From Minisyncoccota bacterium (GTDB taxonomy: Bacteria > Patescibacteriota > Minisyncoccia > Phycocordibacterales > CAIJYI01): a DNA stretch of 64,000 nt. The translations under genes and the position numbers were made by a program. This document shows, piece by piece, positions 5,124 to 56,026 of the stretch. A model generated the notes under the pieces. The model searched no databases and had not been told where the DNA came from. It saw only the letters and a program-made list of their open reading frames with translations. The stretch is taken from positions 14,422 to 78,421 of the forward strand of contig JALNYN010000001.1 of assembly GCA_023229825.1 (NCBI GenBank). The letters are read 5' to 3'. Position 1 is the stretch's first letter, and the number at the start of each line of letters is the position of its first letter.

Positions 5124-5138
5124 AAAACGGAGCAATCG

Positions 5139-5155
5139 TGTATAATGCTTGAATG
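5139..5155 (+). promoter_or_regulatory. extended -10 (TGTATAAT) 6 nt upstream of the ATG: candidate leaderless promoter for the RAYT gene
   Basis: tgtataatgcttgaATG; no SD possible. Confidence 0.45.
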
Positions 5156-5848
5156 GAACGAAAATTTAATTTTAGCGTTGATGAGTACTATCATATTTAT
5201 AGCCGTGGAGTTGAGAAGCGTGAAATTTTTCTTGATAATGGAGATAAAGAAAGATTTTTACGTTTATTGTTCTTATCTAACTCAGGCAAACCATTTAATT
5301 TTAGAGAAGTTTCCGGAATTTCTTTTGAAAATATTTCTCGAGGAGAACCACGAACAGCCATAGGAGCTTTTTGCCTTATGCCCAATCATTTTCATCTACT
5401 ATTACGAGAAACCGAGGAGGGCGGAATAAGTGCATTTATCGGAAAACTTCTCACTGGCTATTCAATGTATTTTAATAAAAAATACAAACGAAAGGGTGTA
5501 GTTTTTGAAAGCCGTTTTCAGGCTCAGCACGTCGATAACGACAATTACCTCAAATATCTCTTTGCTTATATCCATCTCAATCCGGTAAAACTCATCGAAC
5601 CGGAATGGAAAGAGAAGGGAATCAAAGATCAGAAATTTGCCGAAGACTATCTGAATAAATATCGCTACAGTAGCTATGAAGATCATATGGGCACAGAAAG
5701 AGAAGAAGCCCTTATCCTCGACAAAGAGTCTTTCCCAGAATATTTCGAAAGATCCCGTGATTTCAAAGACTATGTAACGGATTGGCTCAATTATCGCGAC
5801 GAAGAGGAAGGCGGTGGCGACACTGTTCCCGAGGGCGGTCCTCGGTAA
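5153..5848 (+). CDS. REP-associated tyrosine transposase (RAYT / IS200-like Y1 HUH transposase)
   Basis: HUH motif NHFHLLL and the Y..YIHLNPVK motif, matching E. coli RayT (HMHCIW; YIYINPVKHG); flanked by REP1 palindromes; paralog at 61945-62655. Confidence 0.85.
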   Translation: MERKFNFSVDEYYHIYSRGVEKREIFLDNGDKERFLRLLFLSNSGKPFNFREVSGISFENISRGEPRTAIGAFCLMPNHFHLLLRETEEGGISAFIGKLLTGYSMYFNKKYKRKGVVFESRFQAQHVDNDNYLKYLFAYIHLNPVKLIEPEWKEKGIKDQKFAEDYLNKYRYSSYEDHMGTEREEALILDKESFPEYFERSRDFKDYVTDWLNYRDEEEGGGDTVPEGGPR

Positions 5849-5873
5849 AATTACCGAGGACCGCCCTCGGGAA
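5826..5873. repeat. REP1 palindrome overlapping the RAYT stop codon (TTCCCGAGGGCGGTCCTCGG-TAAAATTA-CCGAGGACCGCCCTCGGGAA)
   Basis: Direct reading; encodes the C-terminal PEGGPR and the stop. Confidence 0.8.
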
Positions 5874-5950
5874 CTCTAACCAACTTCACGTCATTTTTGC
5901 ATCTCTGTATAGTTTCTTTCCATTTTCTTTTTTGCTAGGATGGTGGCATC

Positions 5951-40354: not shown

Positions 40355-41431
40355 TTACTGTTTCAGGATTTTTTCTATTTCCAAATACCTTTCGATTCTT
40401 GGAAGATCGGCGATAGTTCGGGCTTTTTCATAGAAAACAGGAAAATTCTTTCCGGAAAGTTCAAACAGTTTTTTGAAAAAAGGCATGAGATCTTTATACT
40501 CATTCTCTCCGACGATGTCGGCATTGTTAAGATTTTTCGCGAACCACGCATCGTAACCGCGGTCTCCGCCCCAGCTTTCTTTGAGACGGACGTATTTGCC
40601 ACGCATGTCTGCAAAAATTTTATTTTTTTCAAGACGCATTTGGTCCGGCGCAATGTCTTTTTTATACAAGGTTCGGAGTTCGTTTCGTACGCCGATGATG
40701 AGCGATCCGAATTCATCGCCGCGTTTTTCTTGTTCAAGATTTTTTTTCACTCCGTCTTCGCCGTAGTGTTTCGCTACCCAAAGCTGCTGCCCGGTCTGTC
40801 CTACAAAGCCGGCGAACGCTTCATTGAATGCGGTATCGTTTTTTACATATAACACCTCGTGCGCTTTTTCGTGAATGATAAGACCCGCGAGTCCTGCCGG
40901 AGAATAATTAAAATAGGTATTCATGGCAGGATCCGAGAACCACCCGATAGTGGAAAACGCTATCACTCCGCGAAGAGAAACGTCATAGCCGTTTTTTTGG
41001 AGCTCATGTTTTGCTCGCTCAGCTCTTGTTACGTCAAAAAAACCCAAATAAGAAGAACACCCGGCGACAGGAAAACACCACATCTTCGGAACGGTCGAAA
41101 ATTCAGGAGTGGCCGTTAATGCCCAGATGGCGTAAGGTCTCCCGATATCCACATAAGCGGTATAGCTTTCTGTGGGGAGAAGTCCAATCTCATAAATGGC
41201 GAATTCTCGAATTTCTTTTATCATGAGCAAATGTTCTTTTAATTCGGTCGAGATAGTTTTATTCGAGAGTAATTTTGATATCGGCGTACGGTGTGAAAGT
41301 ATGTTCATTTCTCCGTACATCATGTGAGAATAATATCCCGGACCGGTGACTGTTGAACATGACCCGAGAAGGATAAGAACGGTAAGGATCGCGCTCCATA
41401 AAACGAGGCGCCATTTGTTGCGGCATTTCAT
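40355..41431 (-). CDS. putative zinc metallopeptidase lipoprotein (predicted aminopeptidase-like)
   Basis: Lipobox LLGSC; HExxH motif IIHEKAHEV. Confidence 0.7.
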   Translation of the reverse strand: MKCRNKWRLVLWSAILTVLILLGSCSTVTGPGYYSHMMYGEMNILSHRTPISKLLSNKTISTELKEHLLMIKEIREFAIYEIGLLPTESYTAYVDIGRPYAIWALTATPEFSTVPKMWCFPVAGCSSYLGFFDVTRAERAKHELQKNGYDVSLRGVIAFSTIGWFSDPAMNTYFNYSPAGLAGLIIHEKAHEVLYVKNDTAFNEAFAGFVGQTGQQLWVAKHYGEDGVKKNLEQEKRGDEFGSLIIGVRNELRTLYKKDIAPDQMRLEKNKIFADMRGKYVRLKESWGGDRGYDAWFAKNLNNADIVGENEYKDLMPFFKKLFELSGKNFPVFYEKARTIADLPRIERYLEIEKILKQ

Positions 41432-41529
41432 TGTAAACCTCCGAAAACGGTATTTTAAAGGAACGGTCTTCCTTTATCATATCACTTCCAGAAATTTCGT
41501 CATTTATGCATGCGTCGTGTGCTATCCGA

Positions 41530-42027
41530 TCAGTCAAGTTTTTCGACATCCTTCAGTACCTCTGCCGGATGGGTGAGCGGGTCGACTTTTTGATAGTGCT
41601 TGATGAGAGTTCCTTTTTCGTCAAGCAAGAATGATTCGCGCACGACCCCCATATATGTTTTTCCGTACAAGGTCTTCTGTTTCCAGACGCCATATTGATT
41701 GACCACTTTTTTCTTTTCGTCGGAAAGCAGCGTGAAATTGAGAGACTCTTTTTCAGAGAATTTTTTATGCGATGCTACGCTATCGGTGCTAATCCCGACT
41801 ATAACCAAGCCCTTTTCGGAAAGCTCTTTTTCGTGGTCGCGAAAACACTGCGCTTCGAGCGTGCAGCCCTTGGTCATGTCCTTCGGATAAAAATACAGCA
41901 GCACCTTTTTACCTCGATATTCAAGGAGAGAATGAAGAACGCCATTTTGGTCGGGAAGCTCAAAGTACGGCGCTTCTTCCCCGATCCTTTTTTGAAATGC
42001 GATTTCTTTTTTCATGAAGTTATTCAA
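41530..42027 (-). CDS. bcp: peroxiredoxin Bcp/PrxQ (thiol peroxidase)
   Basis: FYPKDMTKGCTLEAQCFRD. Confidence 0.9.
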   Translation of the reverse strand: MNNFMKKEIAFQKRIGEEAPYFELPDQNGVLHSLLEYRGKKVLLYFYPKDMTKGCTLEAQCFRDHEKELSEKGLVIVGISTDSVASHKKFSEKESLNFTLLSDEKKKVVNQYGVWKQKTLYGKTYMGVVRESFLLDEKGTLIKHYQKVDPLTHPAEVLKDVEKLD

Positions 42028-42140
42028 TTAGTTATTTCTCCCGAATTAGTACGCGATTAATTCGTGAAATATTTCTGAATGAAATTATGAATTCCATCTC
42101 GCGTATGAAGATATGTTATTCGCGAATACAAAAAATATGT

Positions 42141-42539
42141 ATGGCAAACAATAAAGTAATTCATTTTGAGATACAAGCGGACGATGTCGCGCGCGCAAAA
42201 GATTTTTATAGCAAGTCATTCGGCTGGAATATACAACAAGCCATGACCGCAGGAAAAGACGGCAACGGCATGGACTATTGGATGATCGAAACCGGACCGA
42301 AAGATATGCCCGGTATCGGCGGGGGAATGTATGCTCGCCCCAAGGACGGCAAAACCTATGCGTACAAATGTACGGTTTTAGTGGAAAATATCGATGAAGC
42401 GATGGAGAGCATTAAAAAGAACGGCGGGAAGGTGACGAGGGAGAAGACGAATATGGAAAAGATCGGATGGTTCGCCGAAGCGGTCGATACCGAAGGGAAT
42501 GTGTTTTCGATCATGCAAGCGACGGACTGGAAACCGTAA
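42141..42539 (+). CDS. VOC/glyoxalase-family protein
   Basis: HFEIQADDVARAKDFYSKSFGW; start taken at MANNKVIHFE. Confidence 0.75.
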   Translation: MANNKVIHFEIQADDVARAKDFYSKSFGWNIQQAMTAGKDGNGMDYWMIETGPKDMPGIGGGMYARPKDGKTYAYKCTVLVENIDEAMESIKKNGGKVTREKTNMEKIGWFAEAVDTEGNVFSIMQATDWKP

Positions 42540-42702
42540 GGAAAAAAAGTTTGCATTTTGTTGCCGATTATTTAACTCTGCGCGTTCGCGCGGAGTTTTT
42601 TGTATTTTCCATGTTGTTATTTTAAAACAAAAATTTGCAGATTGAGCCTTTTTCCCATAGAATAGTGCAAAATGAAATTTTAATGAGTTTATCTGCAAAA
42701 AT

Positions 42703-45700
42703 ATGAAATCAAAATATGCATTTATTTTAGTCGTCGCTTCTCTTTTTTTCTTCGCGAACTTTGCTGACGCGAGAACGATCGGAGCGGTTTTGAACGGGAA
42801 ATACTTAAGCCCATCAGTGACGGTATTCGATATTGATGATAATAACAAAATTCTCGGAAATGTCACCCTTCCTCCCGGTCGCTTTTTCTATGCTTCGGGC
42901 GATGTATTTATCGCTAAAGCTCAAAATCAAACTGTTGCTTTTGTGACAACGAACGACAGAAAGGTTTTTGTTATTGACCTATCTTCCGATATTCCAAAAT
43001 TAGCTTCCGGAGTTAATCCCATTTTAATTTCCAACTCTGCAGGCGATATTACCATGAGTACGGATGGAGAATTTTTGATCGTTTCCGGCAGCACGTCGGG
43101 CGAACCGATCTCCATAATAAATATTGCATCAAGGCAAGAACTCGGTACTTTTTCAGGTGCAACAAATGTCAATTCTGTGGATATTTGTTCCGATGGATCC
43201 CTTTTGATGTCTTCTTCATCCGGAAACGTGCGGAGATTCACTATTAATAATGCAGGCGGAATTATCGACACAGGAGAGTTGCTTCCGGTCGTTAATCCAA
43301 GAAATGTCGTTTGCTCGCCGGATGGAAGAACTGGAATAATTATAAGTTCGAACCGCATTACCTCATTCCGTGTGTCGGGAATGACGCCAATAAGCAACAG
43401 ATCATTGTCGTACATGTTTCGCGGAATTTCCGGTGTTTTTAGCGCCTCCGGAGATAGATTTTTTGTTCGTGAATGTTTCAACCCGTTTCACGACGGAGAG
43501 ATAAAAGCGTTTGCTTATGATTCAAACTCCGGACAATTTGGCACTTCTCTTTTTACCATATCGGCGACAGAAACTAGCGAGGTGAGCGGTATTGAACAAC
43601 TCGCTGTTGATCCCGATGGAACTAGGCTATATGTACCATCAATGTATTACTCTGTAAGCATGTACGATGCGCACACCGGTTCATTTTTGTCATCATCGCC
43701 ATTTGGATTAATGTATTCAACAGGCATAGCGGTTGCAATGAAAACCGTTCAAAGCAATGTAACGATACTTGCGAATGCGAGCGTGACTGAAGATGACGGT
43801 ATAAATGATGCGAAAGGGGTTGCTGAAAAAACGAGCTTCAGCTTCGGTGTGCAATACAAAGGAATTGTACCTAATTCAGTTCGAGCAATTATCGAAAATA
43901 ATAATGGAACACTTATCGGACTCGAATTGTACGCAACGTCGACCGATTATGCGAATGGGGTTTTCTTTTCCAATTCGTCTACTTTCCCGAAAGGACAATA
44001 TTCTTACCGTTTTGAGGCGACCGCGGAAGGAAATACTTTAACCTTAGCGGGGGGAAATATTACCGCCGGTTATTCCAATGTGGCCTTTTTGCCGGGCATT
44101 AAAGCGAGCCGTCTTTTCAATCAAGGAGACGTACTTGAAGATCAGCTTTGGGAACCGAATTGGTGGTCGGACACGAACGAGCTTATGATGAATCCCGACG
44201 GTACGAGTGAAAATGAAAATATCTACACCAAAACCGATGAGTATCTTGGAACGATCGATCAAGCGAACGTACTTCCCGGATCTCTTTTGAGAGAAAACTT
44301 TTACGTAAGCTTCCTGGATTTCATGAATAGCATGAAAGAAAATGGTGAGATCGCGGACTGGAAATCTCTGCCGTATGACTGGCGGCTCGCATTTCCAAGA
44401 ATTTTAAATCAGGGGAACTCAACGGTGAACGGCAAGATATTTTACGATGACCGGTATGCAACCGATACGCCGTATATTTTGCAAGAAATACGAGCGCTTG
44501 CACAGTCTTCCGACACGGGAAAAGTGAATATTATCGGTCACTCAATGGGTGGGTTGCTTGCAAAGAAACTTCTTGTCGATCACGCAGACATTGCGAACAT
44601 GACCGATACGCTCATTCTGGTTGACTCTCCTCAGCTTGGAACCCCGCAAGCTGTTGCCACCATCCTTCACGGAACCAACGAAAATATTCCGAGCAGTTTC
44701 GGCCTCTTCAGCGACGCCGAGACAGGAAGAAGAGTGGCGCAAAACATGCCATCGGTGTACACGCTTTTGCCTTCGCGGGAATATGCGGAACGTGTCGAGG
44801 AAAGCGGTCTTGGATATTCCGCTCTCATTAAACAAGATGCCTCGCTTCAAAGCCTTGCGAATGACCCGCTTTTTGTTGGCGGCTCCGTTTTGGATTTTTA
44901 TCAAACGAAGTACGGTACGACGACCATTGCAACTTATGACGGAATGAAAGATTTTCTCGGAGGGAAAGACGGGCATCTTTCGGCTCCCGATAACGATATC
45001 ATTCACCCGAAACGAATTCAAATGGATATGCTCGCCGATGCGCAAGCGATACACGATGAAATTGACAACTGGACGCCGTCCGAAAAGATGCGCGTTGTTC
45101 AGATCGCCGGATGGGGAATCCCCGAAACGATTCGCGGATTGAATTACCGAGCAAAGCGGTCCTGTATCTGGAAACTTTGCACTGAACCGAAATTTGATGT
45201 TGAACCGCTTTTCACTTTTGACGGAGACGGGACGGTGACGCTCCCGAGCCAGACGGCGATGAATACCGAAACGTATTATGTGGATTTGAATTCGCATAAT
45301 TTCCTTTTAATAAAAGATCGTTCTCATGGTTCAGTTTTAGAAGTGGAAAGTGTCCGAAAACTTATTAATAATCTAGTTGAATATAAAGACAATCCTTCGG
45401 GTGGTTTAGAGTATATTAAAACAGATAAATCTCGGTTGGTTTCAGATAAAAAATTCATTCGACTCTCCCTTCACTCTCCCGTAAAAATTGACGTAACCGA
45501 CAAAAGCGGCAATCATCTGGGTATCTCTGAAAATTCAACTGCGGAAAAAATCGTTTACGATACTGAAATGCCCAACTCGTATTACGTGGAAATGGGAGAA
45601 GGAAAGTATCTCGGCTTTCCTCTCGAAACAGAGACTACCATTGATCTAGAGGGAACCGGGGAGGGAACTTTTACTCTTGAGATGGAACAATACCAAGGTG

Positions 45701-46113
45701 ACATACTTCAAGGAACGCAAACCTTCACCGATATTCCTGTGAGTCCGACGACCAGAGCGACTTTAATCGTAAATACGCTTGGTGATGCAAAAGAACTTGC
45801 GCTCGATCAAAACGGCGACGGCTCGATCGATTCAGTTGTGTTTACCGACGAGAATAAAGAAACAATAACGTTTCAAACTTTGGAAGACGCACTGCAAAAA
45901 CTTCCTGATCTACGGCCAGCGCTGTTAAACCAAGCTGAGACTGCGGAAAAACAATTCAATATAGGAAACTTCAAAGCAACGAATGCGCTTTTACTAGTTT
46001 TACAAAAAGAAATTCCTAAACTCTCTCAGGGCAATACGTCAAACGAGGAATATCTGAAGGTATTAGCGATTATCGATGTTCTTATTAAAACATCAGAAGA
46101 GAATATTCTGTAA
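42703..46113 (+). CDS. giant secreted LCAT/PGAP1-like lipase, paralog of 5951-10489 (different N-terminal beta-propeller-like region)
   Basis: Signal peptide; VNIIGHSMGGLLAKKL, SLPYDWRLAFP, GYSNVAFLPGIKASRLF; blocks collinear with the first paralog. Confidence 0.85.
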   Translation: MKSKYAFILVVASLFFFANFADARTIGAVLNGKYLSPSVTVFDIDDNNKILGNVTLPPGRFFYASGDVFIAKAQNQTVAFVTTNDRKVFVIDLSSDIPKLASGVNPILISNSAGDITMSTDGEFLIVSGSTSGEPISIINIASRQELGTFSGATNVNSVDICSDGSLLMSSSSGNVRRFTINNAGGIIDTGELLPVVNPRNVVCSPDGRTGIIISSNRITSFRVSGMTPISNRSLSYMFRGISGVFSASGDRFFVRECFNPFHDGEIKAFAYDSNSGQFGTSLFTISATETSEVSGIEQLAVDPDGTRLYVPSMYYSVSMYDAHTGSFLSSSPFGLMYSTGIAVAMKTVQSNVTILANASVTEDDGINDAKGVAEKTSFSFGVQYKGIVPNSVRAIIENNNGTLIGLELYATSTDYANGVFFSNSSTFPKGQYSYRFEATAEGNTLTLAGGNITAGYSNVAFLPGIKASRLFNQGDVLEDQLWEPNWWSDTNELMMNPDGTSENENIYTKTDEYLGTIDQANVLPGSLLRENFYVSFLDFMNSMKENGEIADWKSLPYDWRLAFPRILNQGNSTVNGKIFYDDRYATDTPYILQEIRALAQSSDTGKVNIIGHSMGGLLAKKLLVDHADIANMTDTLILVDSPQLGTPQAVATILHGTNENIPSSFGLFSDAETGRRVAQNMPSVYTLLPSREYAERVEESGLGYSALIKQDASLQSLANDPLFVGGSVLDFYQTKYGTTTIATYDGMKDFLGGKDGHLSAPDNDIIHPKRIQMDMLADAQAIHDEIDNWTPSEKMRVVQIAGWGIPETIRGLNYRAKRSCIWKLCTEPKFDVEPLFTFDGDGTVTLPSQTAMNTETYYVDLNSHNFLLIKDRSHGSVLEVESVRKLINNLVEYKDNPSGGLEYIKTDKSRLVSDKKFIRLSLHSPVKIDVTDKSGNHLGISENSTAEKIVYDTEMPNSYYVEMGEGKYLGFPLETETTIDLEGTGEGTFTLEMEQYQGDILQGTQTFTDIPVSPTTRATLIVNTLGDAKELALDQNGDGSIDSVVFTDENKETITFQTLEDALQKLPDLRPALLNQAETAEKQFNIGNFKATNALLLVLQKEIPKLSQGNTSNEEYLKVLAIIDVLIKTSEENIL

Positions 46114-46140
46114 AATGAAAGAGGGTGGTATAATAAAAAC

Positions 46141-46572
46141 ATGAACTACAAAAAACAAATTAAAATGGCATTTATCATTGCCTTCCTATTTTATCTTTTT
46201 CCGGTGTTCTCTCTTTATCGAGAAATGTTTCCTGACGGCGAATGTGAATTAAACCATAACGGCAATATATTACGATGTCTCTTTTTTGTGCTTTTGCCTG
46301 GCCTAGTTGCTTTATGGATGGTTGTGCTGATGTTTTTTCTCGTCGCGCTTTATTTTCTCAAAGAAGCCATCTTTCTCTCTTGGCGGAAGTTCGCGGTATG
46401 GTATCTCCCAATTGTTCTTGCTTTCACTTTCCTCATCGGTGGCGGATCGAACGGTTTCAATCCGGGCTACGGTTTTGATACCGAATCACTCACTTTCTTT
46501 TTCTCCGGTTTATTCGCATTAGTTTCGGTCATTCTCATTATCTATAAATCCATAAAATTAAGAGGAAAATAA
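46141..46572 (+). CDS. small membrane protein, paralog 3 (C-terminal ..ILIIYKSIKLRGK)
   Basis: Immediately downstream of lipase paralog 2, the same arrangement as 10531/11083 after lipase 1. Confidence 0.7.
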   Translation: MNYKKQIKMAFIIAFLFYLFPVFSLYREMFPDGECELNHNGNILRCLFFVLLPGLVALWMVVLMFFLVALYFLKEAIFLSWRKFAVWYLPIVLAFTFLIGGGSNGFNPGYGFDTESLTFFFSGLFALVSVILIIYKSIKLRGK

Positions 46573-46581
46573 TTGTTACCT

Positions 46582-46619
46582 CAACATAAAATGCCGGCTT
46601 ATGCGGGCATTTTATGTTG
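46582..46619 (+). terminator. rho-independent terminator
   Basis: CAACATAAAATGCCGGCTTATGCGGGCATTTTATGTTG. Confidence 0.75.
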
Positions 46620-46762
46620 TTAGTCGGATAATGATGGCGCTCTATTATCCCGTTGCTCCGTTCAATACTTCGTTTCCTGCTATGCACTGGTCGATTGTTT
46701 TTTATGGCGTTATAATAGAGGCAGGTCGTTAAAAGTAAAATAATAATAAAAAATAATATTCT

Positions 46763-47272
46763 ATGAATAAGAAATTTTATATTTCTGCAGTTGTTCTGTT
46801 TGCGTTTATCTTCGCGGGAAGTGCCTCTGCCTTTGCGGAAGGGAAGGGCGAGAAGATGAGCGAGCAGCACAGAAATAATGTCGCCAAGGTTGTGGAAGAA
46901 CTTGAGAAGGTCGCCAATAAAGACGGTGCGATCGGAGAAGAAGTGAAGACCGTGGCGCAAGAAGAAAAAGATACGGTCGCGGGGGTCTCGGAAAAAATGG
47001 AAAAAGTGGAGAGCCGAAACGGTTTCAAAACCTTTCTCATTGGATCGGACTATAAAAATTTGGGAGCGATCCGCAGCGAGATCGTGACCACGCAGAACCA
47101 TATCGATCGGCTGACGAAATCTTTGGAACGCGCCACGAGCACCGAAGCGAAAGCCGAACTTCAAGCGCAGATCGACAGTCTGAAGGGGATACAAACAAAA
47201 GTCGAAACTTTCGTGAAAGACCACGAAGGGAAATTCAGTTTGTTCGGATGGCTGGTGAAAATGTTTCAGTAA
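46763..47272 (+). CDS. secreted coiled-coil protein (signal peptide)
   Basis: MNKKFYISAVVLFAFIFAGSASAFA then charged heptad-rich sequence; terminator follows. Confidence 0.65.
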   Translation: MNKKFYISAVVLFAFIFAGSASAFAEGKGEKMSEQHRNNVAKVVEELEKVANKDGAIGEEVKTVAQEEKDTVAGVSEKMEKVESRNGFKTFLIGSDYKNLGAIRSEIVTTQNHIDRLTKSLERATSTEAKAELQAQIDSLKGIQTKVETFVKDHEGKFSLFGWLVKMFQ

Positions 47273-47289
47273 AATCTATACGCATCAAT

Positions 47290-47324
47290 AAAAATGATCC
47301 GCCTCGAGGCGGATCATTTTTTTG
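47290..47324 (+). terminator. rho-independent terminator
   Basis: AAAAATGATCCGCCTCGAGGCGGATCATTTTTTTG. Confidence 0.8.
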
Positions 47325-47401
47325 TGTGAGTGAGAAATTGACATTTTTAATATCATTGTGTATGATTATACAACCTTGTTCATTTTTTTGGAGTAGAAAG
47401 T

Positions 47402-47644
47402 ATGAATTTTCGCAAATCTGTTACGTCGCTTTTTAAAGACCATCCGCGTGAAATTCGTCTGGCAGCAAAGATCTTTTTGTTTTTGGGAATAATCATCATC
47501 ATATTCGTTCCCGCCGTCTTTTGTTATTTCTTCGAAATGTCACATCCTGAGATGCTTCTCATCTCGGTGCTGGTCGGCACAATATTGTTCGTGATCGGAT
47601 TTTATCACACTCTCGATACGATCGGCCGCGACGATAACGAGTAA
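47402..47644 (+). CDS. small two-TM membrane protein
   Basis: 80-aa ORF with RBS ggagtagaaagtATG; terminator at 47657-47692. Confidence 0.45.
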   Translation: MNFRKSVTSLFKDHPREIRLAAKIFLFLGIIIIIFVPAVFCYFFEMSHPEMLLISVLVGTILFVIGFYHTLDTIGRDDNE

Positions 47645-47824
47645 CCGATCTTCATACCCCCGCATCAGACGATGCGGGGTTTTATGCGGGGGAAAGGCGT
47701 CCTTTTTCTGAAATTTTTATCGATTGACAACTTCATGAAAAAATATTATAATGAAATCGATAAGTTATCAAATAGTACTGATAGCACAGTTCCTTAACAA
47801 TTGACTTGAATATAGGAGGGTCAA

Positions 47825-49027
47825 ATGAATAACGGCAAATTAATTCGTTTGCCCGGGAATCCTCTTTTGGAGGTGGGTAAAACATTTAGTACTGACGAAT
47901 TTCTCTCTTTTCTTTTTGATTTTTTCGCCACATTGTGGCTGACGCATTATATCGCGGCCGGAGGAGGGGAACATATCCTTGCCGCGGTGAACGCAATATT
48001 TAATGTAATATTTGGAGGTTGGATCATCGTAACCATCCCGCTCTTGTTCGCTCTAGTAGGTCCGGTATGCGAGAAGATCGGATTCTTCCCGAAACACATT
48101 TGGGATTCTTGCTGGGAACGATTTAAAGACAAAAAAGAGGGAAAAGCAAAAACTCGCGGATTCTACGCGAAAAAGGCGATGTCTCGGGGTTTCAAAAGCA
48201 TGGGTGAAGATATCGTCGTGCATGACCCTATATATGTGACGGCAATGTTTTTTGGCGTCAGCATGTTTCCTTGGATCCCTCCTTGGGTGATCTGTATTTT
48301 TTGTTTCCTGCTCGCGGTATTCATTGTTATGATACTTGAAGTGGGAATAAAAGAGGTTCTGCATAAGACGGCGAAAGTATTGCTCGTGAAGAAAGGTTTT
48401 GAAGAAGAACCTTACTACGAAGCGAGATTCCTCTTTGACGATGAAGAAAAGGCGAGGGAAGTCTTTGGCGAACTCGCGAAAAAATTCGTCCACAAAGGTG
48501 AAGACGAGATCTGGAAGATCCATTACCATGACCGATATTTTTCAAAAAAGGAATGGTATAACGGAAGGGTCGCCAAATTGAGAAGCCGAGACCGGCACTT
48601 ACCGAACGGCGAACCGATGCGGACTTGGCAGATCGTGTATACGTTGGCGAAGGAAGAATGGGGCGGTAAGACCGACCAGTTCAGGTATTTTATCTCTCTC
48701 AAGGAGAAAATGTATTATTTGGCGGAACATCCGGAACACCTGCATCAGCCCGACAACATTCCCGACAGAAGGGTGCGCGAGACCGTCAAAAAAATGGCGG
48801 AAAACGAGGTGCCTTTTGTGATCGAGTTCGAACGTTTCGTCGCTGACGATCCGGAATGCCTGCTCATTACGCTCGACGTGGTTAAAACCGAAGACTCTTA
48901 TTTAATAGAGATCAAGGCAAGACCGAAGAACAAAGCGATGATGCAGGAAGCCATGCAATACGCCATGCACTTCGGCGGCTTGACCGCAACAGACGGAAAG
49001 TATTCTCTTTTTGCAGAGACGGTATAA
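47825..49027 (+). CDS. hypothetical membrane protein with ~220-aa cytoplasmic domain
   Basis: RBS aggagggtcaaATG; TM helices then a charged domain; terminator at 49031-49061. Confidence 0.6.
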   Translation: MNNGKLIRLPGNPLLEVGKTFSTDEFLSFLFDFFATLWLTHYIAAGGGEHILAAVNAIFNVIFGGWIIVTIPLLFALVGPVCEKIGFFPKHIWDSCWERFKDKKEGKAKTRGFYAKKAMSRGFKSMGEDIVVHDPIYVTAMFFGVSMFPWIPPWVICIFCFLLAVFIVMILEVGIKEVLHKTAKVLLVKKGFEEEPYYEARFLFDDEEKAREVFGELAKKFVHKGEDEIWKIHYHDRYFSKKEWYNGRVAKLRSRDRHLPNGEPMRTWQIVYTLAKEEWGGKTDQFRYFISLKEKMYYLAEHPEHLHQPDNIPDRRVRETVKKMAENEVPFVIEFERFVADDPECLLITLDVVKTEDSYLIEIKARPKNKAMMQEAMQYAMHFGGLTATDGKYSLFAETV

Positions 49028-49293
49028 TTGATGGACGGGAAAACCCCCGTCCATTTTTTTGTGGAGAAAGGGGAGACTAATGAATGACGTTAGAACCTCA
49101 AAATTTTTTGATAGCAAAAACGTGGCGTTTATTCACGCTTAATGATATAGAGTACGGGAGTGCGGTAAGTGACATGATAAAAAAGTGATTTTGTACAGCA
49201 CACTGATGGGGAGAAAAATCCACACAAAATTCATGGCGAGTTTCGTAACAAAATGTTATTATATAATATAATAAGCGCGCTTTTTCACAAAAA

Positions 49294-50490
49294 ATGAATT
49301 CCCCAAAAAAACCAACATATATAGACCTTTTTGCTGGATGCGGTGGTCTTTCTCTTGGCTTGTATCGTGCCGGATGGCACGGTCTTTTTGCAATTGAGAA
49401 GGATACGATGGCGTTCGGCACGCTTAAGCATAATTTGATTGACAAAAAAGAACATTTTACTTGGCCGGATTGGTTGCCTCAAAATGAACTTGAAATCAAA
49501 GACGTGCTATCTAAATACAAAAAAGAATTAAGCGAATTATCAGGAAAGGTTGATCTTGTCGTCGGAGGTCCTCCCTGTCAGGGGTTTTCAATGGCAGGAA
49601 AGCGCAATGAGGGCGACATGAGAAATAAACTTATCGATTCATATATCGATTTTGTAAAACTTGTTCGTCCAAGGATGATATTTTTCGAAAATGTCAAAGG
49701 TTTTACGGTAGGGTTTAAAAAGGGGGAAATCCGCGGGGATGCGTATTCGAAACATGTTATCAAATCATTAGGAGATTTAGGGTACAATGTTGACTGGAAA
49801 GTTCTCGATTTTTCTGAGTATGGCGTTCCGCAACGCCGGAAGCGATTTATTTTGGTCGGGGTTTTGGGTGGTGATGTTAATAAGTTTTTTGAACTGTTGA
49901 ATTTAAACCGAAAGCAATTTCTTTCAGATAATAAACTCTTGCAAAAGTGTACTTTGAAGGCGGCTCTTTCCGATTTATATCAAGCAAATGGGATCGTAGA
50001 CTCTCCTGATTCAAAAAACTTCAAAGCGGGGATTTATTCGTCACCCAAAAGTAATTATCAAAAATTAATGAGATCAGGGGGTGATATTCCAAAAATTCCC
50101 GATAGTCATCGCTTTGCCAAACACGGAGAAGAAACTGTTAAATTATTTCAAACTTTATTAAAAAAAGCAGAGAAAGGTAAACGGATTGACGGTGATGAAA
50201 GATTGAAGTATGGTTTGAAGAAACGAGGCATTACAGTCCTCGGAGAGGATCTTTCAAGCCCTACACTTACGACACATCCGGATGATTACGTTCATTATCT
50301 TGAGCCGAGAATTTTGACAGTGCGCGAATATGCTCGAATTCAGTCATTTCCGGATTGGTTTGAAATAAGAGGAAAATACACCACAGGTGGAAAACAGCGA
50401 GTCAAAGAAGTTCCGAGATATACTCAACTTGGGAATGCAATCCCTCCCCTGTTTGGTGAACAGGCGGGAAGAGTTCTTAAGAAGTTGTAG
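49294..50490 (+). CDS. DNA (cytosine-5)-methyltransferase
   Basis: Motif I DLFAGCGGLSLG, motif IV GGPPCQGFS, motif VI FFENVKGF, motif VIII region. Confidence 0.9.
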   Translation: MNSPKKPTYIDLFAGCGGLSLGLYRAGWHGLFAIEKDTMAFGTLKHNLIDKKEHFTWPDWLPQNELEIKDVLSKYKKELSELSGKVDLVVGGPPCQGFSMAGKRNEGDMRNKLIDSYIDFVKLVRPRMIFFENVKGFTVGFKKGEIRGDAYSKHVIKSLGDLGYNVDWKVLDFSEYGVPQRRKRFILVGVLGGDVNKFFELLNLNRKQFLSDNKLLQKCTLKAALSDLYQANGIVDSPDSKNFKAGIYSSPKSNYQKLMRSGGDIPKIPDSHRFAKHGEETVKLFQTLLKKAEKGKRIDGDERLKYGLKKRGITVLGEDLSSPTLTTHPDDYVHYLEPRILTVREYARIQSFPDWFEIRGKYTTGGKQRVKEVPRYTQLGNAIPPLFGEQAGRVLKKL

Positions 50491-50492
50491 AC

Positions 50493-52772
50493 ATGAAAAA
50501 TAAAATACAGTTCAAAATCAGTTCGGGTCTTAAAAACCTGATAGGGAGAGAATTGATAACCGATGAATATATCGCGATTTTTGAACTTGTAAAAAATTCC
50601 TATGATGCACGCGCGACAAAAGTGACGATTGCATTTGAAAACATTACGGATCCGGAAAAATCGAAAATTATTATTTCGGACAACGGTAAGGGGATGAATT
50701 ATGATGACCTGATTGATAAATGGCTTTTTGTGGCTTATTCTGCAAAAAAAGAAGGAACGGAAGACGCGGGAGAATATAGAGATAAAATTAATTCAAAACG
50801 GCTTTATGCCGGAGCGAAAGGTGTCGGTCGTTTCTCTTGTGATCGTTTGGGATCAGAATTGAATTTAATAACCACAAAAAACACCAAAAATGCTAAAACA
50901 GAAAATCTTTTTGTAAACTGGACTGATTTTGAAAAGGATGCAGAAAAAATCTTTGCAAAAGTTGATGTTCAACACGAGACTCTTAAAGAAAATCCATACA
51001 AAATCAACCACGGTACCGTTCTGGAAATCTGCGGACTTCGTGATAAATGGGATAGAAAAAGAATATTGAGTTTAAAAAGGTCACTCGCTAAATTGATCAA
51101 CCCTAATCAGGGAAATGATAATTCGAAATTTTCTATTGAAATATTGGCTTCCGAGGAGAAAAACGAAGACAGGAAGCAAAAAAAAGAAAGGGATTGTGTA
51201 AACGGATATGTTACTAATTTTCTCTTTGAAACTCTTGGGTTAAAAACAACTCAAATTATGGCGGAGATATCTCCGGATGGGAATATCATCATCACTACAC
51301 TAAAAGACCGCGGTCGTTTAATATATAAATTAACAGAAAATAACCCCTTTCAGGGGCTTTTGACTGATATAAAAATTCACCTTTTTCATTTAAACAGAAA
51401 ATCAAAAGCAAATTTTACCAAAACGATGGGCATGGAACCAGTAAAATATGGTTCGATTTTTCTCTATAAAAATGGTTTTCGAATATACCCTTTTGGTGAG
51501 GATGGTGAGGATTTGTTAGGAATAGAAAGAAGGAAACAGCAAGGGTATAATCGGTTTCTCGGAACTCGGGATCTTATGGGAAGAATTGAAATTGACGGGA
51601 AGAATGAGGAGTTAAAAGAAACTACCAGCCGAGATGGCGGTCTCATGAAAAATAAAAACTATGAGGCTCTCTTAAAATTTTTTAATGAGTATGCGCTTAG
51701 AAGACTTGAGAAATATGTCGTGGACGTCATCAAGTGGGGAGATGATACAAAATCCGGTCAATTGGCTCTTGAGCCCGAGGATGTAAAAACACAAATTTCC
51801 GACATTGTTGCTGGTATAACAAGTCCGAAAGGTATAATAAATCTTGAGTACGATAAAAATTTCTTAGATATTATTTCTGAGAGTCAAGAGAAAAGTCTGC
51901 CAAAAATTGCGAAAAACTTTGCACGTATTGCTGAAGAAAGTGGCAATAAGGAGTTACAGAAAGAAGCGGCGCGTGCAGTGCTCCAAGTTAAAGAGTTGCT
52001 TGCTGCAAAAGTCGAGGCGGAAAAAGGTGAAAAAAATGCTCAGGAGTTAATTAAATCGACAGAGCAAAAGTTGGAAGAAGAAATCAGTGAAAAACTTTTT
52101 CTTAAGTCTGTTCTATCGACAGATACAGAAGAGGTTATCGTGTTGCAACATCAGATTGATATATCAACAGAAGCAATCAAGGATGGTGTTGGTGATTTGC
52201 TTTATATGGTCAACCACAAGGTTCCAAAAGAAAAAATGCTGGAACCGATAGAAAGAATACGATTTGAAGCAGAAAAAATATCTTCAATTGTAAAATTTTC
52301 AACTAAAGCCAATTTTAGTCTTCAGGTTCCCGAGATAACAGCAGACCTCGTTTCTTTTGTTAAGGAATATATTGAAAATGTTTACAGGGAAGATGAAGCC
52401 ATAAAAACCAATCGACCCTATGTTATTTTTAAGGTAATAACAAATGGAGCCAAATTTTCGTGCAAGTTTAGACCGCTCGAAGTGATAATGGTGATAGACA
52501 ACCTTTTTAGTAATTCGATGAAACACAACGCTCGAAATATTACTATTTCGTGTACTAATCATAATGATGTGTTAGAAATAAAAGTGAAAGACGACGGAAC
52601 GGGGATAGAAGAGCGAATTTTCTCTAAAGTTTTTAATCTTGGTTTTACAACGACAGATGGATCTGGAATCGGACTTTATCACGTAAAGCAAATTATTGAA
52701 AAAATGCACGGAAAAGTTGAAGTTGGTCGGACTGAAAAAGGAGCTGAGATTATAATTCGAATAAAAAAATGA
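50493..52772 (+). CDS. protein with two GHKL ATPase modules: an N-terminal MutL/MORC/Hsp90-like one and a C-terminal histidine-kinase-like one
   Basis: N-terminal ELVKNSYDA...ISDNGKGM; C-terminal N-box IDNLFSNSMKHN, G1 DDGTGI, G2 GSGIGLYHVKQI; starts 3 nt after the methyltransferase stop. Confidence 0.7.
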   Translation: MKNKIQFKISSGLKNLIGRELITDEYIAIFELVKNSYDARATKVTIAFENITDPEKSKIIISDNGKGMNYDDLIDKWLFVAYSAKKEGTEDAGEYRDKINSKRLYAGAKGVGRFSCDRLGSELNLITTKNTKNAKTENLFVNWTDFEKDAEKIFAKVDVQHETLKENPYKINHGTVLEICGLRDKWDRKRILSLKRSLAKLINPNQGNDNSKFSIEILASEEKNEDRKQKKERDCVNGYVTNFLFETLGLKTTQIMAEISPDGNIIITTLKDRGRLIYKLTENNPFQGLLTDIKIHLFHLNRKSKANFTKTMGMEPVKYGSIFLYKNGFRIYPFGEDGEDLLGIERRKQQGYNRFLGTRDLMGRIEIDGKNEELKETTSRDGGLMKNKNYEALLKFFNEYALRRLEKYVVDVIKWGDDTKSGQLALEPEDVKTQISDIVAGITSPKGIINLEYDKNFLDIISESQEKSLPKIAKNFARIAEESGNKELQKEAARAVLQVKELLAAKVEAEKGEKNAQELIKSTEQKLEEEISEKLFLKSVLSTDTEEVIVLQHQIDISTEAIKDGVGDLLYMVNHKVPKEKMLEPIERIRFEAEKISSIVKFSTKANFSLQVPEITADLVSFVKEYIENVYREDEAIKTNRPYVIFKVITNGAKFSCKFRPLEVIMVIDNLFSNSMKHNARNITISCTNHNDVLEIKVKDDGTGIEERIFSKVFNLGFTTTDGSGIGLYHVKQIIEKMHGKVEVGRTEKGAEIIIRIKK

Positions 52773-53746
52773 GATTAAAATACAAAATTTTATGGTTTGA
52801 GGATGACTCAGAATTTCTTGAAAAAAGACTCGTTCCACGAATAGAGAAATATTTAAGTGAAGGATTAGGATTTGATTCCGAAATTGTTCATAAAACAAGC
52901 GGTACAAATGTTGATGCTCTTGTTTCTCGTGAAGAATACGATCTTATTGTTACCGATTTAAATCTTACGCAAGGGAAAGACGAAATCGGTCAAAAAATTA
53001 TTGAGAAAGTTCGGCTTCAGAAAATTTTAACCGATGTGCTTCTTTATTCGAGTTCACCACGTGCTATAAAAGAAATAAAAGAAAAAAATCCAGGGATAGA
53101 AAGAATTTCTTTTGCCTCTGGTCGTGCGGCGATATATGATAAACTATGCGAAATCATTTTTTTGACTGTTAGAAAAGTTCAGGATGTTAATAATTTAAGG
53201 GGAATGGTTATTACTGAGGCGATTGATATTGAAACGAGGATTCGAGATTTATTAGTTGAGAAATTTGAAGAATTAGACGCGGATGAACTTGAAAAACTCA
53301 GACAAAAAAAAATTAAACATAAAAAAAATAATGTTGATAAGTTAAAAAAAAGTGTTGCGAAAAGTGTGTCTCAGCTGGTTGAAGGATTGTTTACTTTTTC
53401 TGAGCTCCACGACGAATTAATGGGAATGATAGGGGAAGCTATTTCTGAAACGAAACGGGTACTTTGTGATCCAAGAAAGGCTAAGTCAACAGATCCAAAG
53501 TTAATTAAATTAAAAAAATTAGCATTTTTACGGGATGAATTACAAAAAATGAAATCAGACGTAATTCATCTTAGAAATGATATGGCACATGCGAAGGCTG
53601 AAAGACATCCTACGACAGGACGACCAGTTTTAACGAGCATAATTAGCGGAAAAAAACAACATTTTGACGATACTAAGTGTATAAAAATAAGGAAAGCTAT
53701 ATTGAGCCATTTCCAAAATATTGAGGAAATTGCGAAGCACTTATAA
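52769..53746 (+). CDS. receiver (REC)-like domain protein; the C-terminal helical domain carries an Rx4H motif (RNDMAH), possibly HEPN-like
   Basis: ILWFEDD ... DLIVTDLNL acidic-pocket and phospho-Asp pattern; ATGA overlap with the upstream gene. Confidence 0.55.
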   Translation: MRLKYKILWFEDDSEFLEKRLVPRIEKYLSEGLGFDSEIVHKTSGTNVDALVSREEYDLIVTDLNLTQGKDEIGQKIIEKVRLQKILTDVLLYSSSPRAIKEIKEKNPGIERISFASGRAAIYDKLCEIIFLTVRKVQDVNNLRGMVITEAIDIETRIRDLLVEKFEELDADELEKLRQKKIKHKKNNVDKLKKSVAKSVSQLVEGLFTFSELHDELMGMIGEAISETKRVLCDPRKAKSTDPKLIKLKKLAFLRDELQKMKSDVIHLRNDMAHAKAERHPTTGRPVLTSIISGKKQHFDDTKCIKIRKAILSHFQNIEEIAKHL

Positions 53747-54007
53747 AGTTCGGCGCTTATTTGTTTTTTTGTTTAATTTCTTCCTTGATTATAACTTAAT
53801 GAGGTACAATTCTTTTTTAAAGTAGTGTTGTAACGAATTTTAAACGACGCCGGACGGTTTAATCGTGTGCTTCGCACGCTATCACGGATGGGGGATATCT
53901 TTCATTACATGAACGGTACAGTTTTCACACCTCACTTCGCCTGTGGGCTCGTTGCGGTATGTTCAAACTCTTCGATTCCCCCGCGCGAGACAAGCAGTTG
54001 TCTCGCT

Positions 54008-54073
54008 CATCTCCACAAATCTAAAAAACAGTCCGCTTGTTGGCGGACTGTTTTTTAGATTTGTGGAGATGGG
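54008..54073. terminator. long inverted repeat / bidirectional terminator abutting the tmRNA 3' end (a 29-bp stem that includes an inverted copy of the tmRNA 3'-terminal 15 nt)
   Basis: CATCTCCACAAATCTAAAAAACAGTCCGC-TTGTT-GGCGGACTGTTTTTTAGATTTGTGGAGATG. Confidence 0.6.
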
Positions 54074-54449
54074 GGGAATTGAACCCCCGTGCAAAAAGGA
54101 ACTCTTGGTGCCGGTACAAACATAGTTTATTTTTTTTGGTTTAAACCTTATAAGTTTGAAATAAACAAAATCTTATAAGCGTCGAGCTTCCTTTGTTTTG
54201 AAAATGTGCCGAAGCGCTCACATTTTCTATCCTGATGATATTACACCTTTTCTTTCTTATCAGGACTCAAAAAGAAAAGATGCCGTTTACGCTAAAGCGT
54301 AGCTCGGAGCGAAGTACGGAGATAAGACCGCACCTGCTTTTTTAGATAAGTTTGCACTTATGCAGTTTCTCGCGCATTTTAACGGGTGAGCGAGAATATC
54401 CGGTTTGAGCATTCAAGAGAGCGGCTTATTGTCTAGGCCGATCATCCCC
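54062..54449 (-). ncRNA. ssrA: tmRNA (ssrA)
   Basis: 5' GGGGAUG pairs with 3' CAUCUCC, including a G3:U70 wobble; T-arm GGGGGTTCAATTCCCCC; tag ORF ending ...YALA-TAA (stop at 54287-54289); adjacent to smpB. Confidence 0.7.
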
Positions 54450-54540
54450 ATGGGTTATCAAGGTGCTTATATAGTATACCGCAAAACTCACATATTGACA
54501 ATAGCTATAAATAATGTTATTTACAGCCTGAATTTGGCGC

Positions 54541-54990
54541 TCATCTTGCTTTCCATTCTCTGGCTATGTCGCGCTCGGTATCGCGTTTTTTGATGGTTTC
54601 TCGTTTGTCGTATTTTTTCTTTCCGCGCACTATGGCGATCCCTACTTTTATCTTCTTTCCTTTGCCGAACATCGAAATAGGGATGATCGTCAATCCTTTT
54701 TGCCCTTCGGCGCGGGCTATTTGGGCGATCTCTTTTTTTGTCAGAAGGAGTTTTCTGGTGCGATCGGTCTGGTAAGCCGACACGGCGTTGTTGGGCTGGT
54801 AGAGCGGAATCGATGCGCCGACCAAGAACGCTTCGCCGCCTCGAACGAGCACGCGGGCGCCTTCAAGAGAACCGTGAGAAGATTTTACGGATTTTACTTC
54901 GTGCCCGAGCAGTTCAATGCCTGCATCGAATTTCTCGATCATTTCGTAATCGAAATGCGCTTTTTTGTTATGGACAAACGTCGGCATGGG
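54541..54990 (-). CDS. smpB: SsrA-binding protein SmpB
   Basis: AHFDYEMIEKFDAGIELLGHEVKS...; start at MPTFVH (the long ORF extension is not conserved). Confidence 0.9.
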   Translation of the reverse strand, partial: PMPTFVHNKKAHFDYEMIEKFDAGIELLGHEVKSVKSSHGSLEGARVLVRGGEAFLVGASIPLYQPNNAVSAYQTDRTRKLLLTKKEIAQIARAEGQKGLTIIPISMFGKGKKIKVGIAIVRGKKKYDKRETIKKRDTERDIAREWKAR

Positions 54991-55119: not shown

Positions 55120-55431
55120 ATGACTATATATATGGGACCGGAGGGCGATATTTTTGGATTTGATGGAAAGAAATCTGCCAAGGACGACAAAAATGAAACA
55201 TTTGTACATGGACGTTATAGAACAAAGAAAATCCAAGCGCTCAATTTTTTAGAGGGTGCGAGCGACGAGGCTTATTATACGAAAGAAGCATTGTCTACCA
55301 TTAGGAAAGCGGGAGTGCCGGGTTTTACCGGTGCCAATATGGAAAAGATCCTTTCTTTATATGAGGAGATCAATCTTCGTTTGCGCCGCGAGATGGTGTT
55401 GATGAAAAGGAGTATTGTCGAAGAAGAATAA
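55120..55431 (+). CDS. hypothetical protein
   Basis: SD aggagg 6 nt upstream of the ATG at 55120; terminator at 55451-55482. Confidence 0.5.
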   Translation: MTIYMGPEGDIFGFDGKKSAKDDKNETFVHGRYRTKKIQALNFLEGASDEAYYTKEALSTIRKAGVPGFTGANMEKILSLYEEINLRLRREMVLMKRSIVEEE

Positions 55432-55522
55432 CGGCGATCGTTTGACTAGTGAAGCTCCGTACTGAAGTGCGGAGTTTTTTTGTGGAGGGGCAAAGGTCCA
55501 TAATGTCGGACGCTCGCCATAT

Positions 55523-55551
55523 GGATTCAGGATCGCGGTCCGGAATGACGA
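55523..55551. repeat. Family-B unit (reverse orientation)
   Basis: TGGATTCAGGATCGCGGTCCGGAATGACG. Confidence 0.5.
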
Positions 55552-55663
55552 CGATAACGGGTTTCGGTGCTTGACAAAAGACCATGAGATGAGCTAAATT
55601 CGAGAGAGATTCCGTGTTTTTGAAACGGATGATCTGGATGTTTGAAAAGGAGGCAGAGAAGCT

Positions 55664-56026
55664 ATGAAAGTTATGCATGGTCAAGACCCGGCTTATAAAC
55701 AACGGCAAACCGAGAGAGAAATTGAACAGCGCAGAGAATTTGTTCGTTTGGTGATGGAGGCGATGCCGTTCACGGCGCATTATGGCCACACTCATGACGA
55801 TGTGCCGAATTTTATGGAATTGGCTTTTGGGGAGAAATTCGAATTGGTTCACATGTCACCGCATGAAGCGGATAAAAATTCCCCGTACCTCACTATGGTG
55901 CTGCAGAAGTTTTGTGTGAGTGCAAGACTTGTTAAGACCCGTGTTGAGACCAAAGATGTTTTCCGCGTTCATTACTTCGTCGTACCGAATCAATGTTACC
56001 TCGATAGTCTTCGTGGAGTTTGTTGA
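55664..56026 (+). CDS. hypothetical protein
   Basis: 120-aa ORF with RBS aaggaggcagagaagctATG. Confidence 0.5.
   Translation: MKVMHGQDPAYKQRQTEREIEQRREFVRLVMEAMPFTAHYGHTHDDVPNFMELAFGEKFELVHMSPHEADKNSPYLTMVLQKFCVSARLVKTRVETKDVFRVHYFVVPNQCYLDSLRGVC

Follow-up and report, generated by a model that had tools for sequence, protein, structure and literature searches.

Within tRNA and transfer-messenger RNA (tmRNA) genes, the T-loop is reportedly a sublocation of integration. Elements that integrate in such genes restore the gene and leave a displaced fragment, and the canonical criteria for an island demand an integrase gene (PMC4383910). Group I introns also occupy the tmRNA T-loop, at positions 2, 3, 7 and 8 and with an average of 293 bp in the founding set, and a CCA end that is not encoded is a recognised variation of tmRNAs (PMC11915505). 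Here we analysed a 64-kb stretch of a Patescibacteria genome (the window), in which the tmRNA gene ssrA runs into a perfect 29-bp inverted repeat followed by a further non-coding module, together labelled X. We put at roughly 0.7 the probability that this palindrome is the junction between ssrA and a non-autonomous mobile element, X, that targets tRNA-type genes, and not a lengthened terminator. The module has a defined anatomy with covarying stems, arms matched to the local gene at ssrA, tRNA-Ile and tRNA-Ser, an insertion polymorphism and tandem units, from which we infer that X is, or was, such an element.

X shares with the integrase islands of tRNA and tmRNA genes an insertion site in the 3' part of the gene, a boundary in the T-loop, a restored gene end and a displaced direct repeat, as well as tandem arrays and rapid turnover among close relatives. 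Unlike them, it measures only 130-250 bp and holds no integrase or other gene, and it has hairpin-split complements of the gene 3' strand, a cloverleaf fold and the same core with re-matched arms at different genes. Of the features in the Islander definition, insertion, restoration and a displaced repeat were all found, and a tyrosine integrase gene inside the element was not. Group I introns resemble X in being T-loop insertions; X is smaller, however, and does not interrupt the gene but supplies its 3' end and terminator. An intron was rejected, as Rfam scans at E up to 10 and up to 1 gave no Intron_gpI match and the gene is complete without splicing.

The ssrA gene and the anatomy of X

ARAGORN called a single gene in the window, the tmRNA at 54063-54449 (-) with the tag ANLSKKAGAVLSPYFAPSYALA and a stop, and Rfam RF00023 matched 54449-54061 (-) over the full model (1-374) at 119.5 bits (gathering score 47, E 4e-46). 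The acceptor stem pairs GGGGAUG with CAUCUCC, giving G3:U70, and the T-arm, also aligned by Rfam, is GGGGG-UUCAAUU-CCCCC at 54088-54072. The discriminator A at 54064 is followed by CAA, so that ACAA stands in place of ACCA and CCA is not encoded. The regions of pseudoknots PK1-PK4 fall within the Rfam alignment, with posterior probabilities low in places, and the tags of relatives resemble that of the window. The gene lies 91 nucleotides (nt) from smpB, which is directly upstream, and a predicted promoter ends 24 nt before it by a consensus scan. These results confirm what a sequence-only reading of the locus had named, a tmRNA on the minus strand with the G3:U70 wobble, an in-frame tag ending in YALA and no encoded CCA; both scans found a tmRNA at that place and on that strand, and the resume codon proved to be GCA. 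The full-length match, G3:U70, T-arm, YALA tag and adjacent smpB are those of the one-piece tmRNA (RF00023) that acts with SmpB, and the window gene reads as a normal, functional-looking member of this known family, beside smpB in a Patescibacteria (Parcubacteria/Paceibacterota) genome, with nothing unusual in the gene itself.

A repeat search recovered exactly the 29-bp stem that the same reading had attributed to an inverted copy of the tmRNA 3' end. The outer 15 bp of the repeat consist of the tmRNA's acceptor 3' strand, discriminator and trailer paired with a complement of them. The 15-mer CATCTCCACAAATCT occurs exactly once per strand, and the repeat is not due to chance, because dinucleotide-shuffled sequence yields 0.15 matches with as many as 2 mismatches tolerated. 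Nor is it an assembly artefact, since the ENA contig (L001; L-numbers label the fetched relative loci or contigs) has the same sequence at 100% identity, as does the independent Logan assembly L002 as far as 53925. The L002 contig breaks at 53925, inside the X core and 46 nt before the T-arm complement, which fits assemblers stalling at the palindrome. The centre of the repeat resembles an intrinsic terminator, with an 8-bp stem (54050-43/54036-29, 6 G-C pairs) and a U-run at 54028-23 on the minus strand. This hairpin is symmetric with A6 on its other side and looks bidirectional by sequence, and a consensus terminator scan did not list it. The terminator type of L003, L039, L097, L101 and L122 has a good U-run in the tmRNA sense only.

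All parts of X were read in the tmRNA sense, that is, on the minus strand. Across loci the module is non-coding and about 130-250 nt long; the window copy spans about 182 bp, from T-loop position 3 (54081) to 53900, and contains no open reading frame (ORF). Three of its features lie beyond the inverted repeat and were absent from the sequence-only reading: a hairpin, a T-arm complement and a decayed direct copy of the tmRNA 3' end (Table 1). One A separates the GGAGAUG arm from the hairpin, and GC separates the hairpin from GGGGGAAUCGAA. The core is homologous to the cores of L003, L099 and L122a at ssrA and to those of L013 at tRNA-Ser and L003 at tRNA-Ile. The distal copy is homologous in position and flank to that of L083, and intact equivalents are present in L003, L039, L052, L122 and L013.

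Table 1 Coordinates of features in the window
Feature	Position	Strand	Evidence
ssrA, standard one-piece tmRNA gene	54061..54449	-	ARAGORN, Rfam RF00023, sequence reading
Tag reading frame: resume codon GCA (54355-54353), ANLSKKAGAVLSPYFAPSYALA, TAA stop	54287..54355	-	ARAGORN coding part 95-163 of gene, sequence
smpB, 148 amino acids (aa), tmRNA partner	54541..54987	-	Pfam SmpB PF01668 E 3e-45; 148-aa gene also on ENA contig
Predicted sigma-70-like promoter of ssrA, TTGTCA-17 nt-TATACT	54473..54501	-	Consensus match only, 10/12
Perfect inverted repeat, 29 bp, 6-nt spacer, arms 54008-36 and 54043-71	54008..54071	.	Repeat search, 100% complementary
Core intrinsic-terminator-like hairpin: CAGUCCGC, loop CAACAA, GCGGACUG, UUUUUU	54023..54050	-	Sequence only
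GGAGAUG arm at the start of element X, exact complement of acceptor 3' strand; mimic of acceptor 5' strand with A3 for G3	54008..54014	-	Sequence
Perfect 9-bp hairpin (hp) GCGAGACAA-CUGC-UUGUCUCGC, D-arm position	53985..54006	-	Sequence, covariation, signature search
GGGGGAAUCGAA, complement of 3' T-stem strand and T-loop (11/12); mimic of 5' T-stem strand	53971..53982	-	Repeat search
X core, 'sub1' type: long imperfect hairpin and small hairpin (53901-53913)	53900..53970	-	Homology to relatives' cores
Decayed direct copy of tmRNA 3' end, GAUAUCCCCCAUCC vs CAAUUCCCCCCAUCUCC (displaced fragment/distal repeat)	53886..53899	-	Homology to L083
Variable region between X and conserved aminopeptidase gene (40355-41431)	41432..53746	+	Synteny with L084, composition, Pfam/PADLOC
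Dcm-type methyltransferase	49294-50490	+	PADLOC MTase_II 5e-82
Double-GHKL ATPase-domain protein, 759 aa, weak REase_II match	50493-52772	+	Pfam/PADLOC
325-aa ORF	52769-53746	+	No Pfam, PHROGs or PADLOC match at E up to 1

As a single strand, the part of X between GGAGAUG and the distal discriminator is predicted to take up a cloverleaf-like fold: its acceptor-like stem has 7 bp, the hairpin stands where a D-arm would, and a T-stem-like helix of 9 bp, continuous with the acceptor 3' strand, surrounds the two hairpins of the core. Fold z-scores were -7.7 for L003 and -9.2 for L122a, with 0/200 shuffles as stable, and the copies at tRNA genes fold alike. In the window copy the closing stem is broken without compensation and the inner helices remain, at z = -4.0. 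Because the stems of a tRNA-type gene are self-complementary, the inverted copies equal its acceptor 5' strand and 5' T-stem strand. In every ssrA-linked copy position 3 is A and not the G of the gene, which marks the arm as complementary to the 3' strand and not copied from the gene 5' end; such an arm could not confer alanine identity. The X complements match both the replacement gene end and the distal repeat, which makes the DNA one long palindrome with the terminator inside it. G.U pairs are missing from the hairpin and arms and make up 3-4% of predicted X pairs, compared with 9-11% in tmRNAs. In 11 of 12 copies the fold is more stable on the tmRNA-sense strand, RNAalifold gave similar consensus energies for both strands, and the types of arm mismatch are uninformative on strand. 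The rarity of G.U and the strand data fit DNA hairpins, or a constraint on both strands, at least as well as they fit RNA.

Recurrence and insertion polymorphism among relatives

SmpB-anchored searches yielded 80 species-representative genome loci and 80 metagenome loci, all from Patescibacteria, the best SmpB identities to the window being 85% (L083), 80% (L084) and 70% (L085). Behind ssrA, the parts come in the same order in L003, L039, L052, L055, L083, L097, L099, L101, L122 and L159. A signature search gave 15 matches in 1.8 Mb, every one on the tmRNA strand; each lies either 32-60 nt behind ssrA or within a second tandem unit. A covariance model of the module added L095, L089, L146, L027, L086 and L010, whose tmRNAs were confirmed by Rfam, for a total of roughly 16 X-bearing loci among about 110 Patescibacteria ssrA loci. 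At one of the added loci, L146, Rfam aligns its tmRNA model to 539 nt (4952-5490), about 150 nt more than in relatives, and ARAGORN misses the gene, which may contain an insertion.

The complements vary with the T-loop and T-stem of the genome that carries them (as with UUCGCUA in L055 or UUCGACU in L052), and in all copies they end precisely at the 5' boundary of the T-loop. In an alignment of 12 modules, 89.6% of cells were paired, 15 pairs had changed on both sides and 0/500 shuffles reached the score, and sliding the partner columns brought pairing down to 34-53%. Eight of the nine hairpin pairs covary (96% of cells paired, 0/500 shuffles reaching the score over the 12 modules), and the acceptor-complement arm is present in all 12, its pairs 18-25/90-98 being 99% paired. 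Cores of the 'sub2' type share conserved linker motifs. A subclass of X has NNGAGAA in place of NNTCGAA opposite the T-loop (L009-Ile 7291-7398, L013-Ser 3056-3149(-), L003-Ile 4029-4122 and L159 1567-1706), for which a tandem G.A/A.G mismatch is expected in mid-helix.

The covariance model also matched tRNA-Ile(UAU) genes in L009 and L003 and tRNA-Ser(GCU) genes in L009, L013 and L043. Every tRNA-linked copy has acceptor and T-stem complements matched to its gene, along with the hairpin, a core homologous to the others and a direct repeat, which in the L013 tRNA-Ser copy is 33 nt long and perfect. One hairpin sequence, GCAAGCAAACUGCUUUGCUUGC, is shared without change by the tRNA-Ile copy of L009 and the ssrA copies of L055 and L095, and the tRNA-Ile core of L003 resembles the ssrA core of L099. 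Under strict rules, a structure-aware survey placed X at 11/96 ssrA, 1/42 tRNA-Ile and 2/8 tRNA-Ser genes. The covariance model and this survey overturned a first tRNA screen that had suggested specificity to ssrA; that screen was falsely negative because it required a contiguous inverted copy.

Comparison of L097 with L145 revealed a filled and an empty site. Their tmRNA bodies are about 99% identical, and L097 carries 196 extra bp from T-loop position 3. The distal copy of L097 and its flank are 80% identical over 100 nt to the native 3' end, terminator and flank of L145, and 440/477 columns match once X is removed. The direct repeats of X vary in length from 17 to 80 nt, and those of L003, L039, L052, L122 and L013 are perfect from T-loop position 3-4. 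Tandem units occur in L122, L055 and L052. X is patchily distributed over the SmpB tree, with loci that lack it as close relatives of loci that carry it. The window and L083, whose tmRNAs are 91% identical, have different X variants and different terminators, and L084 has no X. Trailer and terminator are 73-90% identical among loci with tmRNAs only 43-56% identical. The tandem units, the patchy phylogeny and the better conservation of modules than of host genes argue for mobility of X. Such a pattern is the one expected of elements that enter tRNA and tmRNA genes, restore them and displace a fragment (PMC4383910).

A second filled and empty pair, L091 and L099, was rejected as the genes are mosaic. 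Their tag-coding middles are about 95% identical, with identical tags, against only about 55% for the 5' and 3' thirds, and they have different acceptor and T-stems, a pattern suggestive of recombination inside ssrA. Larger insertions between direct repeats of the gene 3' end, each with one small ORF, follow ssrA in L038 (957-1800, 830 bp) and L070 (1063-2050, 980 bp). In L038 the repeat-proximal arm resembles the X core, and a gene with a Fic domain follows.

Readings of the module

In the reading we favour, X would insert in the T-loop of its host gene and bring a replacement gene end, consisting of T-loop, 3' T-stem strand, acceptor 3' strand and discriminator (in the window with CAA, not CCA). 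Next would come the terminator hairpin of X itself, the exact complement of the acceptor 3' strand, the 9-bp hairpin, and finally the complement of the 3' T-stem strand and T-loop and the core with its two hairpins. The original gene 3' end would be pushed downstream as a direct repeat, which in the window has decayed. By analogy with the integrases of islands that target tRNA and tmRNA genes, X is probably moved by a recombinase supplied in trans and acting at the T-loop. The palindrome, or the cloverleaf, is probably the structure recognised for recombination, besides serving as the new terminator of the gene. In the window, the neighbouring X appears to provide the ssrA 3' end, beginning at T-loop position 3.

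A bolder form of this proposal, which we hold only tentatively, is that X is retargetable, its hairpin-split arms (7-8 nt and 12 nt) being complementary to the target 3' strand so as to guide insertion in the T-loop. The arms may guide directly or may mimic the target duplex in folded form, with the element supplying the replacement 3' end, and the same hairpin and core at ssrA, tRNA-Ile and tRNA-Ser would then reflect re-programmed arms. The enzyme could be a trans-acting recombinase that works on folded single-stranded DNA, as with integron attC and CTX-phage attP sites, or on an RNA intermediate that RNase P and RNase Z would release.

Several observations weigh against X being a mobile element of this kind. 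Searches with Pfam, PHROGs and PADLOC found no recombinase, or any ORF, inside or next to any X copy, the neighbouring genes being housekeeping or without a domain match, and the integrase gene expected under the Islander definition is missing. With hairpin and core homologous throughout, the arms match three different target genes, a combination that classical site-specific recombination does not explain. On polarity alone, an insertion in L097 is not separable from a precise deletion in L145. Both T-stem strands differ between these two loci, a difference that a simple crossover in the T-loop does not predict, because the repeat begins only in the T-loop. In the window the distal repeat has decayed while the palindrome is perfect, and the palindrome could have been kept for a host function. 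The sample, moreover, is confined to SmpB-anchored loci of one clade.

A host function is the substance of one alternative, that X is not mobile and encodes a tRNA-like small RNA of benefit to the host, co-transcribed with the tRNA or tmRNA ahead of it by read-through of the hairpin and released by RNase P 5' of GGAGAUG and by RNase Z after the distal discriminator. Selection would then keep the stems matched to the parent gene, and patchiness would reflect repeated loss through the direct repeats. The cloverleaf-like fold, whose 7-bp acceptor-like stem leads into a T-stem-like helix at very low z-scores, agrees with this, as do the like folding of the tRNA-gene copies, the strong covariation, the greater stability of the tmRNA-sense strand in 11/12 copies, the conserved linker motifs of 'sub2' cores and the intact palindrome, hairpin and T-arm complement of the window beside its decayed distal repeat. 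X begins 3-5 nt after the U-run, however, which leaves no room for a promoter, and the uncompensated break in the window's closing stem and the scarcity of G.U (3-4% vs 9-11% in tmRNAs, none in hairpin or arms) would be unusual for an RNA under structural selection. The ssrA-linked copies all lack G3:U70 and are thus not chargeable like tmRNA, close relatives have no X or a different variant, and no Rfam family matches. On balance, we regard a small RNA as unlikely.

The sequence-only reading had taken the inverted copy as more likely to stabilise termination or 3' processing of a tmRNA lacking CCA than to mark an attachment (att) site. The repeat does extend a terminator-like hairpin to a 29-bp helix that forms in the predicted read-through fold, CCA is not encoded in the window, and the palindrome is better preserved than the distal repeat. 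The extra 15 bp, however, lie 3' of the U-run and are therefore absent from terminated transcripts; if transcribed, they would keep the acceptor 3' strand out of the 7-bp acceptor stem. The module is present in L083, where CCA is encoded, and most CCA-less ssrA genes of the clade have no module. The repeat is the first part of a larger conserved module that recurs after ssrA and tRNA genes in distant relatives, with att-type direct repeats from the T-loop that are perfect in relatives and decayed in the window, and in L097/L145 the module is a 196-bp insertion that displaces the native 3' end and terminator. A role confined to lengthening the terminator stem leaves the hairpin, T-arm complement, core, direct repeats, tandem units and tRNA-gene copies unexplained, and we consider it decidedly improbable.

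Hardly credible is a passive by-product without function or mobility, made by hairpin-templated template switching (quasi-palindrome correction) and decayed local duplications: it would suit helices that are all perfectly Watson-Crick without G.U and arms that always match the local gene, with A3 against the gene's G3 as in a templated complement of the 3' strand, but independent events would not give the same hairpin position, homologous hairpins and cores and conserved linkers across three different genes and genomes with tmRNAs only about 50% identical, nor a complement that stops exactly at the T-loop 5' edge in every copy. Because the cores and hairpins of different loci are homologous, quasi-palindrome correction stands only as a possible contributor that keeps the arms perfect.

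Two further kinds of described element resemble the proposed mobile X in part. Miniature inverted-repeat transposable elements and the cis-mobilisable elements derived from integrative elements are likewise small, non-coding and structured, with inverted terminal sequences, and are presumably moved in trans. X differs from them in being seen, within the 1.8 Mb, only at the 3' end of tRNA-type genes and not dispersed, in having terminal sequences that copy the target and not a transposase site, and in its repeats of 17-80 nt without a fixed-length duplication. Integron attC and CTX-phage attP sites share with X an imperfect palindrome at the junction, a bulged element, a variable apex, structure kept over sequence, a crossover a few nt into the stem base and tandem cassette-like units. 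This likeness is purely structural, and no link to IntI or Xer was found.

Known RNA families and sites were rejected as identities of X. The region has the order of permuted tmRNA (RF04321), namely T-arm, acceptor 3' strand, hairpin and acceptor 5'-like strand, and the order of the last three accounts for matches to that model of 27.1 and 27.7 bits, which fall short of the 47-bit gathering score. Upstream there is a complete standard gene, GGAGAUG has A3 in all ssrA-linked copies, and there is no downstream tag frame. Rfam scans of the window, L101 and eight loci returned tmRNA, tRNA, chance microRNA-like palindrome matches and the sub-threshold permuted-tmRNA matches, and ARAGORN, with introns allowed, found no convergent tRNA or tmRNA gene on the plus strand. 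A dif or replication-terminus site was rejected as well, GC skew being positive throughout 40-64 kb without a change of sign.

No viral parent of X emerged from viral contigs. A scan for the core motif gave 17 chance matches in GC-rich coding sequence, a pattern for the att architecture gave 0 matches, and 120 matches to the plain tmRNA 3' end were tmRNA or tRNA genes or ordinary att cores without an inverted copy. Four phage-like contigs (L181 3152-3171(-), L255, L292 and L295) carry genes of about 80 nt that have G3:U70 and no tag frame and look like a tmRNA reduced to its tRNA-like domain (GGGGATG...TTCGAC...T-arm...CATCTCCA). In six others (L189, L203, L265, L260, L293 and L276), CATCTCCA is followed within 5-100 nt by GGGGATG and GG.ATTCGAC, and this order of CATCTCCA and GGGGATG is the gene order of permuted (two-piece) tmRNA.

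Surrounding genes and significance

Beyond X lies a variable region that extends to a conserved aminopeptidase gene. The interval from aminopeptidase to X is 12.6 kb in the window and 1.5 kb of different sequence in L084, about 11 kb more, and GC is 0.36-0.40 at 48-54 kb. The sequence-only reading had asked whether a Dcm-GHKL-REC cluster downstream of the tmRNA is an insertion. The DNA there is indeed variable, partly AT-rich and, over about 11 kb, missing in L084; the last ORF, on the other hand, gave no match to a receiver (REC) domain. The region also encodes AhpC, a glyoxalase, a 1136-aa LCAT/PGAP1/WD40-like protein, hypothetical proteins and several ORFs without a domain match, and by its predicted gene content it looks like restriction-modification-like or defence cargo. 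Pfam, PHROGs and PADLOC searches found no integrase in it, and no distal att copy was found within 5 mismatches. A transcript of the 325-aa ORF would pass antisense through X as far as the shared hairpin.

On the other side of ssrA, the gap to smpB, 91 nt in the window, is 3.1 kb in L083, the closest relative (4447-7609), where it holds genes for a 611-aa SPFH/Band 7 protein and a 337-aa hypothetical protein. Between smpB and ftsH the window has a 160-aa ORF (55370-55852 (-)) with no Pfam match at E up to 1; it is absent from the ENA gene calls and may not be a real gene.

No description of an X-like element was found in Rfam or in the searchable full-text literature, and that X is something new in kind is a thought we entertain with some doubt. 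As a mobile element, X would be a protein-less insertion that is tolerated inside essential tRNA-type genes because it includes a spare gene end, shaped like the RNA it invades and with arms matched to three target genes. It sits in Patescibacteria, where mobile DNA is poorly known, and elements like it have probably been overlooked, as island finders that need an integrase gene (PMC4383910) would discard them. If the arms do guide insertion, X would represent a compact, programmable targeting system for tRNA genes; if X is an RNA instead, it would found a new tRNA-like RNA family. For the Patescibacteria themselves, X would account for the fast turnover of ssrA 3' flanks, of the encoded CCA and of T-stems among close relatives.

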